DNA of 4,333 nucleotides from a virus (lineage: Duplodnaviria; Heunggongvirae; Uroviricota; Caudoviricetes): IMG/VR virus record IMGVR_UViG_2660238126_000003, positions 1 to 4,333 of that record; one strand, given 5' to 3'. Under the pieces are notes generated by a model. It was not told where the DNA came from, made no database searches, and worked only from the letters and a program-made list of their open reading frames with translations. Numbering within the stretch: position 1 is the first letter of the stretch; each line of letters begins with the position of its first letter. Of this stretch, positions 1 through 4,333 are shown piece by piece. A program made the position numbers and the translations under genes.

Positions 1-240
1 CCAGTAAATACATCTGGGCGGTAAGCCAGGTGGCATGAACCGGCCAGGCATCGGGATAGACAAACACCTGGATCACTATCGTCATTCCTGCCAGCACTAG
101 TGCGGAAAAACGGCGCGACGAAGGCGATGGCGAAGGTGGCGAGCGACTGTAGCGTTGCTGCCGTTGGATCGCCCTGCGGGAAGAAGATATGCGGAAACAC
201 AATAACGGCCGCAGTGGCGTAAATGTAAAAGTCGAAGAAC
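1..240 (-). CDS. Fragment of an MFS-type (metabolite:H+ symporter-like) transporter; missing its 5' end at the 241 junction and running off the window start; reading frame is not continuous (see findings)
   Basis: Minus-strand translation from 239 downward gives FFDFYIYATAAVIVFPHIFFPQGDPTAATLQSLATFAIAFVA, a pattern typical of TM1-loop-TM2 of MHS-family MFS transporters (compare the WYDF..Y..A motif in ProP/ShiA/KgtP-type proteins). Downstream (1-100) a different minus frame is the hydrophobic one (RRFSALVLAGMTIVIQVFVYPDAWPVHATWLTAQMYLL). Identity of the gene is not established. Confidence 0.4.
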
Positions 241-245
241 NNAAT

Positions 246-1022
246 GGCGCGAACGTCTGGCCACTGAACACCGTTCAATTTTCTAATCACACCCAATACG
301 GCAAATGGACTGGCTGCGTGATGCCGCCCAGCCATTTAACCGAAATTGTGCAAGGCATTGCCGCCATTGATAAATTACACACCTGTGATGCCGTGTTAAG
401 TGGCTATCTGGGATCGGCGGAGCAGGGTGAACATATCCTCGGTATCGTCCGTCAGGTGAAAGCCGCGAATCCGCAGGCGAAATATTTTTGCGATCCGGTA
501 ATGGGTCATCCGGAAAAAGGCTGTATCGTTGCACCGGGTGTCGCAGAGTTTCATGTGCGGCACGGTTTGCCTGCCAGCGATATCATTGCGCCGAATCTGG
601 TTGAGCTGGAAATACTCTGTGAGCATGCGGTAAATAACGTCGAAGAAGCGGTTCTGGCAGCGCGCGAACTCATTGCGCAAGGGCCACAAATTGTGTTGGT
701 TAAACACCTGGCGCGAGCTGGCTACAGCCGTGACCGTTTTGAAATGCTGCTGGTCACCGCCGATGAAGCCTGGCATATCAGCCGTCCGCTGGTGGATTTT
801 GGTATGCGCCAGCCGGTAGGTGTTGGTGATGTGACGAGCGGTTTACTGCTGGTGAAACTGCTTCAGGGGGCAACGCTGCAGGAGGCGCTGGAACATGTGA
901 CCGCTGCAGTCTACGAAATCATGGTGACCACCAAAGCAATGCAGGAATATGAGCTGCAAGTGGTGGCTGCTCAGGATCGTATTGCCAAACCAGAACATTA
1001 CTTCAGCGCAACAAAGCTCTGA
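246..1022 (+). CDS. pdxY: Pyridoxal kinase PdxY (ribokinase superfamily), 5'-truncated; the first ~38 codons and the native start/RBS are absent
   Basis: ORF 189..1022 translation from residue 20 onward ([47 protein letters not shown]...[15 protein letters not shown] stop at 1020-1022) matches my recollection of E. coli PdxY. The first 19 residues of the track ORF (MRKHNNGRSGVNVKVEEXN) cross the nn at 241-242 and do not match PdxY. Confidence 0.9.
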
Positions 1023-1034
1023 AATATCTCATTT

Positions 1035-1058
1035 CGGCCCACAACGACCTGTGGGCCG
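1035..1058. terminator. Perfect 9-bp GC-rich hairpin (cggcccaca / acgacc loop / tgtgggccg) between the convergent pdxY and gstA; candidate bidirectional terminator or mRNA 3'-stabilising stem-loop
   Basis: Inverted repeat read directly at 1035-1043 and 1050-1058, 13 nt after the pdxY stop and 8 nt after the gstA stop. Neither side has a strong U-tract, so terminator function is uncertain. Confidence 0.4.
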
Positions 1059-1065
1059 ATGGATA

Positions 1066-1671
1066 TTACTTTAAGCCTTCCGCTGACAGCGCGTCTTGTA
1101 CTTCCGGACGTTCAGCCATACGTTGCATAAATGCTGCAATGTGCTCTAACCCTTCCAGATTCAGTTTCACCGCGTATGCCCAGCGCAGAACCGTAAACAG
1201 ATAGGCATCAGCAATTGTAAATCTTTGCCCGCAGATCCAGTGCTCATCCTTCAGTGCCTCGTTCACATATTGCAGCTTCTTCTCCAGCTGCGCGCGAACT
1301 GTCGGTTTGTACTCTTCCGGTGTATCAGGGCGAAACAGAGGTGTGAAACCTTTATGCAGCTCGGTGGCGATGTAATTCAGCCATTCGATGGTTTTATAGC
1401 GGGAAATACTGTTTACCGGTGCCAGCAACTGGCGGTCGGGGACGCTGTCGGCAAGATACTGCATAATCGCTACGCCTTCCGTCAGCAAAGTACCGTCATC
1501 CAGCAGCAATGCAGGCACCTGCCCCTTAGGGTTAACGACAAAGTAATCGTCACCGTTTTCGAGACGTTTTTTCATTAAATCCACACTGACGAGGGTAAAA
1601 TCCTTTCCGCTCTCACGCAGGGTGATATGGGAAGCGAGAGAGCAGGCACCCGGTTTGTAGAACAATTTCAT
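1066..1671 (-). CDS. gstA: Glutathione S-transferase GstA, complete (201 aa)
   Basis: Translation [44 protein letters not shown]...[12 protein letters not shown] matches my recollection of E. coli GstA. ATG at 1671-1669 is preceded by a GGAG Shine-Dalgarno (minus-strand aaaaGGAGttaccgATG); stop TAA at 1068-1066. Confidence 0.93.
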
Positions 1672-1721
1672 CGGTAACTCCTTTTGTCTGTGGTTTAAAG
1701 TATGGTAGTGCGTTGCTGAAC
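1672..1721 (-). promoter_or_regulatory. Putative gstA promoter / 5'UTR squeezed between the dtpA terminator and the gstA start
   Basis: Minus strand reads tttttttttGTTCAGCAACGCACTACCATACTTTAAACCACAGACAAAAGGAGTTACCGatg. It has only weak -35/-10-like hexamers (TTGTTC, CATACT/TTTAAA) with non-ideal spacing; the call is positional and low-confidence. Confidence 0.3.
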
Positions 1722-1754
1722 AAAAAAAAAGCCGCTAACGAAAAGTTAGCGGCT
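1722..1754 (-). terminator. Rho-independent terminator of dtpA: 10-bp stem (agccgctaac / gttagcggct), 5-nt loop, followed on the minus strand by a 9-U tract
   Basis: Read directly: plus-strand A9 (1722-1730), stem 1730-1739 and 1745-1754. On the transcribed minus strand the hairpin is immediately followed by UUUUUUUUU, 23 nt downstream of the dtpA stop. Confidence 0.8.
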
Positions 1755-1776
1755 TGTAAAAGAGTTTCCCTGAATT

Positions 1777-2970
1777 TTACGCTACAGCAGCTTTCGCCGC
1801 TTTGTCTGCAGCGTCATCCTGCGTCATACGGTGCAGTTTAGGCGCGGTCAGCAGCATCAGTACTGCAATAATGGCAGTAGCGACACCAATCTGCAAGAAT
1901 ACGCGACCATAAACTTCCAGTGACATCAGCGGGTCGGTAACGTTATCCGGCACAGCCATCATACCCGCAACATAACCACCAATCAGGTTTGCACCGGCAG
2001 TGGTCAGGAACCAGCTACCCATAATGAAGCCCATCAGACGCTGCGGAACGAGTTGTGCAACCATTGCCAGACCCAGACCAGAGATCATCAGTTCCCCGAT
2101 GCTCTGCAGGCCATAGCTTGCGACCAGCCAGCTTACAGACACGATACCAGCGTCAGACGCGAATTTCGCACCCAGCGGCAGAATCAGGAACGCACCAGAA
2201 CACATCACCATGCCGATTGCAAACTTGGTTGGCATCGGCAGGGTATCGCCCATCTTGTTATAGATAGCGGCCAGAATCGGACTACCGATGATGATCCAGA
2301 ACGGGTTCAGTGCCTGATACTGCTCAGGTTCTACGGCCAGACCCAGAATGGAGTGCTCAACGTTACGAATCGCAAAGAAGTTCAGTGACGTTGGCATCTG
2401 GCTGTACAGCACGAAGAAGATAATGGCTTCGAGCATCAGGATGAAGGCAACGATCATTTTACGACGCGCAGCACCTTTCATCGCGAAGGCTTCTTTACCG
2501 AAGATAACCACGATACCGAAGGCAACAACGCCCAGCGCCATACGCGCAACTTCCTGATTGTGCAGCAGCCAGGTGGCGATAGCGATCAGTGCCACAACAC
2601 CAATAATGGTCAGCAGCAGGTTACGGTAGTTGATAGGCTCGAAGTCTGGTTTTGAACCGTACTGTTTAACCCAGCGTTGGCAGAAGGCGAAGTTAACGAT
2701 AGTGATCAGCAGGCCTACAACGCTCAACGCAAACGCAACACTCCAGCCGTATTTCGCGGCCAGCCACGGCGTAGCAATCATAGAGAAGAAAGAGCCGATG
2801 TTGACGGACATGTAGTACATGGTGAATGCACCGTCCAGACGCGGGTCGTTTTTCTCATAGCATGTAGAAAGCAGAGAAGACGGGTTAGCTTTAAACAGGC
2901 CGTTACCGACCGCAATAGCCGCCATACCCATATAAACGATACCGGCGTNGTGACCNGACNNGNNANNCNG
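1777..2970 (-). CDS. dtpA: Dipeptide/tripeptide permease DtpA (TppB/YdgR; POT/PTR2 family), 5'-truncated; about 100 N-terminal codons and the promoter are absent
   Basis: ORF 1777..2931 translation ([49 protein letters not shown]...[16 protein letters not shown]) matches my recollection of the C-terminal ~385 residues of E. coli DtpA. The codons readable through the n-containing stretch 2932-2970 are compatible with the preceding DtpA residues (..LVAWSGHDAGIVY); compatibility ends at about 2970. Confidence 0.9.
2949..2969. other. Cluster of nine ambiguity codes (n) within 21 bp at the dtpA / phage junction; low-quality base calls
   Basis: Read directly: gtNgtgaccNgacNNgNNaNNcNg, with n at 2949, 2956, 2960, 2961, 2963, 2964, 2966, 2967 and 2969. 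A second nn pair is at 241-242, at the other end of the pdxY-gstA-dtpA block. Confidence 0.95.
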
Positions 2971-3140
2971 GGGATCACGGTCATCATCGCGTTTACATCC
3001 ATATCCATAATGGCCTGCAGGCGTGTACCGCGTAGCGCACCGGACTGCGGTTTACGCAGCACAATTTCGGTGATTTCTGTTTTACCGCGCTTGATGGGGG
3101 TATCCAGTTGAATGGTCTTTTCAGTCTGCTTATCGCTCAT
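2970..3140 (-). CDS. P2 gpE-like phage tail assembly chaperone, N-terminal 57 codons only; 3'-truncated at the 2970 junction
   Basis: ATG at 3140-3138 with AGGA Shine-Dalgarno 7 nt upstream; translation [57 protein letters not shown]. Its position directly after the tube gene matches the P2 order FI-FII-E, and the sequence pattern resembles gpE-family proteins as I recall them. The remainder of track ORF 2778..3140 is out-of-frame read-through into antisense dtpA. Confidence 0.6.
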
Positions 3141-3165
3141 TTTGCTGTCCTGTCAATTGGGTTCT

Positions 3166-3183
3166 GGCGCGGTATCCCGCGCC
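3166..3183 (-). promoter_or_regulatory. GC-rich stem-loop (7-bp stem ggcgcgg/ccgcgcc, 4-nt loop) in the FII-E intergenic spacer; possible attenuator or RNA-stability element
   Basis: Inverted repeat read directly, 11 nt downstream of the FII stop and 25 nt upstream of the E start on the minus strand. No U-tract follows, so it is not a canonical intrinsic terminator. Confidence 0.35.
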
Positions 3184-3194
3184 GTTCAGATATA

Positions 3195-3710
3195 TCAGAG
3201 GCCGAGGGCGTTGCGGTGCGCTTCCATCAGGTCCACACCGTCCACAATTTCCACCATGTTGATAAGGTCCACTTCATAGAGCACCTCACCATTGATGGTC
3301 AGCTTCGCGTAGCTGTTGGTACTGGTCACTTTGGTGGTGTTGCTTTCGCCCGTCTTCCACTCGCCGGAATCCACTTCTTTGTGACGTCCACGCACGACAA
3401 GCTCCACGGCCTGCACTTCCCCGGTATCGTCACGCTGAATAGAGCCGGTAAAGCGCAGCTGGATGCCATCCACCGTGGCTTTACCCATCTGTTTAAACAG
3501 CAGCAATTCAGTACCACCAATGGAAAATTCTGTGTCCAGCGCACTGTCATCAAGCCCCAGATCCACATCCACCGCACCCGGCATTCCGCCGCCGCGATAC
3601 TTCTCATATTTGCGGGTAAATTTCGGCAGCGTCAGCGACTCAACGATCCCCTGCCAGTTGTTCCCGTCGTTAAACAGGTTCAGGTGTTTTAATTTGCGTG
3701 GTAATGCCAT
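3195..3710 (-). CDS. P2 gpFII-like phage major tail tube protein, complete (171 aa)
   Basis: Translation MALPRKLKHLNLFNDGNNWQGIVESLTLPKFTRKYEKYRGGGMPGAVDVDLGLDD...MEAHRNALGL resembles P2 FII as I recall it. ATG at 3710-3708 with GGGGA Shine-Dalgarno; it starts 10 nt after the FI stop, the tight packing typical of phage structural operons. Confidence 0.85.
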   Translation of the reverse strand: MALPRKLKHLNLFNDGNNWQGIVESLTLPKFTRKYEKYRGGGMPGAVDVDLGLDDSALDTEFSIGGTELLLFKQMGKATVDGIQLRFTGSIQRDDTGEVQAVELVVRGRHKEVDSGEWKTGESNTTKVTSTNSYAKLTINGEVLYEVDLINMVEIVDGVDLMEAHRNALGL

Positions 3711-3719
3711 GTTGTCCCC

Positions 3720-4244
3720 TTACGCGCTGACCTGGCTGGCGAAATTCACCAGGTACTGATCGGTGATGCGCTGACGCAGCATCAGGTTTTCAAGTGGCGG
3801 CACTGGCGTGTAGTCGTAGTCGATGGTGAGTTTTCCGGCTTTCAGCGTGTCTTTGTCGTTCACCGACTCATCCAGCCAGCAATCACCACCAATGAGATAG
3901 CCCTGACTGACCAGGCTGCGCATTTTGGCGCGGATACCTTCGATAATGTCGCGGGCCAGCGACGGGTTAAGCGGTTTATCCACCGCCCACATGTGTGCTT
4001 CTGCCATCGTGTCCATCAGCACCTGCGCCGTGCGGGTGTAGTTTTCGAAGGCAAAGAGCGGGTCATCACTCAGGCAGCGGGAACCCCAGAAGCGGAAACC
4101 GTCTTTACGCACAAGCGTGGTGACGTCGTTCTGGTTCAGCAGACCTGCATCGGTTGCCGGGTCCTGCAGATCCCAGAACACATCTGCAGAAATTCCGGTG
4201 ATGCCTTCCCGTGCAGTGATATCAGTGCGCTGAAACGGGATACG
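3720..4244 (-). CDS. P2 gpFI-like contractile tail sheath protein, C-terminal portion; upstream continuation is interrupted by in-frame stops
   Basis: Translation ...[62 protein letters not shown]...[41 protein letters not shown] closely resembles the C-terminal region of P2 FI as I recall it. The track ORF start at 4181 is an internal GTG (the Val of ..SADVFWDLQ), not the true start. The frame stays open to 4244 and then meets in-frame stops at 4245-4247 and 4281-4283. Confidence 0.8.
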
Positions 4245-4333
4245 TCAGGGGCATTCAGGATGACCACCACCTTTATGGGGTTACAGGGGAGCCAGTCGCC
4301 TCTCCCCGGTTATTACCTCGATCACCTGGCCTG

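Follow-up and report, generated by a model that had tools for sequence, protein, structure and literature searches.

The joint at which dtpA meets gene E of a P2-like prophage in this contig is almost certainly absent from the genome of the bacterium; it is most probably (about 0.86) an artefact of assembly or consensus building. The window analysed here, 4,333 nucleotides in length (positions 1 to 4333), is the entire contig CCBV01000741.1 of the NCBI assembly GCA_000936365.1, shown in reverse complement. The contig number, 741, suggests that this draft assembly was highly fragmented. The open reading frames of the window were listed and scanned for Pfam domains, and its loci were compared with a reference set of 5,426 complete E. 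coli genomes. The contig was found to combine five pieces of unlinked DNA: a DoxX gene from a plasmid, yhjE, pdxY-gstA-dtpA, phage E-FII-FI and tssG. Apart from the n's, each piece was 100% identical to some finished genome when compared without gaps. The features are the following.

1 to 112, minus strand: 112-nt piece of a DoxX-family gene, matched at 100% in 59 of the 5,426 genomes, each time on a plasmid.
113 to 248, minus strand: 136 nt from the interior of yhjE, a chromosomal gene, identified by comparison with complete E. coli genomes.
246 to 1671: pdxY without its 5' end (plus strand) and gstA (minus strand, 1066 to 1671), identified by synteny and identity with strain GE3 and by Pfam.
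1777 to 2970, minus strand: 3' part of dtpA, about three quarters of the gene, identical to GE3 except for the n's; PF00854 (PTR2), E = 7.6e-94.
2949: n at the indel of the gapped (global) alignment, to which it may be linked.
2954 to 2970: superposition zone, compatible with the dtpA and the phage references alike in a position-by-position table.
2971 to 3140, minus strand: 5' fragment of the P2-like gene E, 57 of 100 codons, identified by identity with the prophage of strain A7 and by PF10109.
3195 to 3710, minus strand: complete tail tube gene FII; PF04985, E = 8.8e-60, and RefSeq annotation of the matching prophage.
3720 to 4201, minus strand: 3' part of the tail sheath gene FI, ending at the joint at 4201, where the ungapped prophage match stops; PF17482.
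4202 to 4333, plus strand: 132 nt from the interior of tssG, a type VI secretion gene; 100% identical in many genomes.

The dtpA side of the joint was aligned with strain GE3. Positions 246 to 2970 of the window matched the pdxY-gstA-dtpA region of this strain without a gap, and the n's were the only mismatches. The gene encodes the dipeptide/tripeptide permease of the POT family, an assignment confirmed both by the PTR2 domain and by the synteny with gstA and pdxY. These two genes are the usual chromosomal neighbours of dtpA, and the window keeps their normal order. Bases that fit dtpA and not the phage end at 2953, and bases compatible with dtpA extend to 2970, where the GE3 match also ends; a reading made from the letters of the window (the sequence-only reading) had followed dtpA-compatible sequence to about the same position. 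When the full gene of 500 codons was projected onto the window, it occupied 1777 to 3279 on the minus strand. The copy in the contig thus lacks its promoter and codons 1 to 103 (counting to 2970) or 1 to 108 (counting to 2953), in agreement with the first ~100 codons that had been reported as missing together with the promoter.

Interrupted copies of dtpA were also encountered elsewhere. In six other public assemblies the gene is broken independently, and all six give the same 384-aa open reading frame starting at M117. Three of them carry the nonsense change W107* (G320A). In the other three, the 5' region of dtpA is not translatable in frame, which looks like the result of indels. Since codon 107 corresponds to window positions 2959 to 2961, a link between W107* and the joint was considered; it was judged a coincidence, because one SNP cannot give nine n's.

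The phage side was aligned with the P2-like prophage of strain A7. Positions 2954 to 4201 matched without a gap, and again the n's were the only mismatches. Bases compatible with the phage begin at 2954, and bases that fit the phage and not dtpA begin at 2971. The P2 gene order together with the domains PF17482, PF04985 and PF10109 confirmed an FI-FII-E module of the P2-like Peduoviridae. Gene E, which encodes the tail assembly chaperone, starts with an ATG at 3140 on the minus strand and is broken 171 nt into the gene. The PF10109 match covers residues 9 to 56 of E and positions 1 to 48 of the 79 in the profile (E = 7e-10). The 57 N-terminal residues of a gpE-like protein without its C-terminus, as proposed earlier, were recovered as 57 of the 100 codons with this domain. 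In the matching prophages, the gene order is sheath, tube, E, E', tape measure, U, D and ogr, followed by host DNA.

The phage piece is 99.8% identical to Escherichia phage 500465-1 (Peduoviridae). The record of this phage, NC_049342.1, is a predicted prophage region located beside smpB. Host genes annotated as phage (ffh, grpE, nadK, recN, bamE, ratA and smpB) take up about 9 kb of it, and IS fragments are present at the end opposite the host genes. In NC_049342.1 (33537 to 33965) and in the Logan contig SRR22198920_13 (3682 to 5462), a gene with a TIR domain (ThsB-like) separates the replication genes from the portal gene. In the latter, a C-terminal sheath fragment of 153 aa is immediately adjacent to the portal gene, suggesting that this prophage is also rearranged or misassembled.

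The letters at the joint were then compared with both parents position by position. Nine n's, at 2949, 2956, 2960, 2961, 2963, 2964, 2966, 2967 and 2969, lie at the dtpA/E joint, as the sequence-only reading had seen. The only others are found at 241 and 242, so that all 11 n's of the contig fall at two of its four joints and the rest is flawless. Because the remaining sequence is flawless, a generally poor base quality does not explain the n's. Between 2954 and 2970, all eight n's fall on differences between the two references, dtpA and phage, and all nine called bases fall on agreements, although the interval was itself defined by the called bases and the statement that every difference is an n follows partly from this definition. 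What the definition does not force is that the nine called bases fit both parents and that no n falls on an agreeing position. The bases common to both parents across these 17 positions, all nine of them called, read CC.GAC..G..A..C.G.

With a plain breakpoint and random low-quality calls in this interval, the fit of all nine called bases to the "wrong" parent would be accidental, which has a probability of (1/4)^9 or about 4e-6. Among about 300,000 17-mers from the fetched loci, 12 fitted all nine called bases; 11 of these were copies of dtpA or gene E and one was unrelated. The ninth n, at 2949, is located at the sole indel of a gapped end-to-end alignment (GTC-GTG versus GTCAGTG, with an extra A in the phage), and it may well be tied to this indel. 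The parental ends thus overlap over 17 nt without gaps, with 9 of the 17 positions identical, or over about 24 nt when gaps are allowed. An identity of 9/17 has P = 0.012 at a match rate of 25%, and about 1.5% of random 17-mers reach it. Judged from the letters themselves, the run of n's is the apparent consensus of two superimposed sequence ends, with an n at each conflict. In these two respects the earlier view had to be corrected: it had the ends joined without a spacer, whereas the two overlap by 17 nt, or by about 24 nt in the gapped alignment, and it had taken the n's for low-quality bases, whereas they mark the positions at which the parents disagree.

The reading frames across the joint were also compared. 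The frames of E and dtpA differ, since the distance between their starts (3279 minus 3140, or 139) is not a multiple of 3. The open reading frame that reads through the joint, 2778 to 3140, continues the frame of E into out-of-frame dtpA sequence. Because the frames differ, no DtpA fusion protein would result, and the fusion makes no sense as a coding unit.

The sequence-only reading had suggested a comparison with complete genomes. When this was done, the joint was found in 0 of the 5,426 E. coli genomes: no locus covered 80% of the whole window, and none covered 80% of a 601-nt query with the joint at its centre. The search would have joined pieces up to about 800 nt apart. A 45-nt pattern of the joint, with the n's as wildcards, had no match in bacterial and archaeal genomes (one per species), in viral contigs or in metagenome contigs. 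A literature search with the accessions of the assembly and the contig and with neighbouring WGS prefixes gave nothing relevant; the matches were unrelated strain names.

The contig contains three other chimeric joints. At 112/113, plasmid DoxX sequence meets the chromosomal yhjE bluntly and without n's; several of the plasmids bearing the DoxX piece come from strains named ETEC. At 240 to 248, yhjE passes into pdxY; the two share the 3 nt GGC, and nn stands at 241 and 242. Here, two of the five differing positions were written as n (241 and 242) and the other three (243 to 245) were called as yhjE. Since only 2/5 of these disagreements became n, the contig does not follow the rule "n at every disagreement" throughout. 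At 4201/4202, the sheath gene FI of the P2-like phage meets tssG, again bluntly and without n's. Within single finished genomes, dtpA and tssG lie 1.5 Mb apart, the prophage and yhjE about 1 Mb, and yhjE and tssG 1.2 Mb. Misassembly accounts far more readily than four rearrangements for four unrelated joints within 4.3 kb, of which one connects a plasmid to the chromosome. The occurrence of two blunt, n-free joints among the four suggests that more than one error process was at work. The earlier reading had spotted the dtpA/E joint and missed the three others, and these strengthen the artefact reading. Its preference for an artefactual join over a real rearrangement is supported by the n pattern, by the absence of the joint elsewhere and by the mosaic contig.

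On these grounds, we propose that the assembly or consensus step for CCBV01000741.1 overlaid the end of dtpA on the unrelated end of a P2-like prophage. The two ends share chance similarity over 17 nt, or about 24 nt with gaps; a base would have been written where the two ends agreed and an n where they conflicted. The superposition was presumably made by software. The flanks of the joint belong to separate, unlinked loci, the n's occur only at joints, and the contig shows further signs of misassembly. A real DNA junction has one sequence, so the fact that every discriminating base in 2954 to 2970 is an n counts against a genuine junction. Against the proposal, an overlap of 9/17 is far below what mainstream assemblers accept.

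The joint was compared with known kinds of artefact. Like the chimeric contigs of draft bacterial assemblies, this contig has perfect but unlinked flanks, a joint that is seen in no finished genome, several joints within a short length and short foreign tails at its ends. It differs from them in that the run of n's encodes the disagreement between the parents, which most assemblers do not write. Overlap-merging consensus steps, such as read-pair or contig mergers and options that convert conflicts to N, do write an N or an ambiguity code at disagreements. The joint resembles the output of such tools in having a base at each agreement, an n at each difference and one n beside the indel of the gapped alignment. 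It is unlike them in that they normally need overlaps far better than 9/17, and in that only 2/5 of the differences at the yhjE/pdxY joint were written as n.

Alternatively, a chimeric library molecule may have bridged the two loci in vitro, either by ligation of fragments or by a template switch of the polymerase at the CC.GAC..G microhomology. Genuine dtpA and phage reads overhanging the joint would then yield the conflict n's, so that the observed n pattern is equally expected here, and the joint would still be an artefact. The parental identity at the joint (9/17; P = 0.012) is above the expectation for random abutment, and the pieces of 112 to 136 nt set off by the two blunt joints (112/113 and 4201/4202) resemble chimeric reads or fragments. 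However, the microhomology is weak evidence, given the share of random 17-mers that would do as well. Moreover, one template-switch product has one clean sequence, and the n's would still need a consensus that mixed parental reads. We consider such a molecule an unlikely source of the joint. Whether software overlaid the ends or a library molecule joined them, the joint is non-genomic.

A genuine rearrangement of the chromosome would be a large inversion, a deletion or a transposition-like event that connected dtpA to gene E of a resident P2-like prophage by illegitimate recombination at microhomology. The n's would then come from a mixed population or from poor local read quality. Prophages are frequent end points of rearrangements, and the short imperfect homology at the joint would fit. 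Junctions of this kind, including deletions that end in prophages, likewise bring unrelated loci together at short imperfect similarity, but they are unambiguous and usually recur within a lineage, whereas here the discriminating bases are n and the joint is unique. A microhomology-mediated rearrangement should leave a single, unambiguous and reproducible junction sequence, and neither the letters of the contig nor the joint searches gave one. A true junction has a defined sequence and not an n at each parental difference, and this joint is absent from the 5,426 complete genomes and the three contig collections. Three other impossible-looking joints, one between plasmid and chromosome, lie in the same 4.3 kb. 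In addition, the closest phage record has its prophage beside smpB, with ogr nearest to that end, and not in the nth-dtpA-gstA neighbourhood. A rearrangement in the bacterium is therefore very unlikely. Even less probable is a variant in which dtpA and E did recombine, for example at the end of a large inversion, and a heteroduplex of about 17 to 24 nt was resolved differently among the cells, giving polymorphic n's.

A plain end-to-end abutment without overlap, in which the n's come simply from poor base calls where a read ends, is scarcely credible. The density of n's does climb towards the joint, as it would at a decaying read end, but a chance match of nine called bases to the other parent would be needed (about 4e-6), and the zero n's on the nine parent-agreeing positions would be left unexplained. 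Given the coincidence of the n's with the parental differences, a decay of quality at a read end was rejected as their source. Finally, the site-specific integration of a prophage, which had been excluded before, was rejected here too: phage DNA adjoins chromosomal DNA at a P2-type attL or attR as it does here, but the break lies within E, a structural gene. It is roughly 5 kb away from the closer end of the prophage and does not adjoin the integrase, and in intact relatives E', T, U, D and ogr separate E from that end.

The dtpA/E joint is thus without biological significance and is a matter of the quality of a database record. The contig CCBV01000741.1 of GCA_000936365.1 is a chimera made of five pieces and should be treated as such. 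The truncated dtpA, the truncated E, the "fusion" open reading frame and the adjacencies of plasmid to chromosome and of phage to type VI secretion genes in this contig should be disregarded. The case also has a general diagnostic use, since a run of n's that falls on the differences between two candidate parents is a quick sign of a consensus misjoin that can be read without access to the reads.
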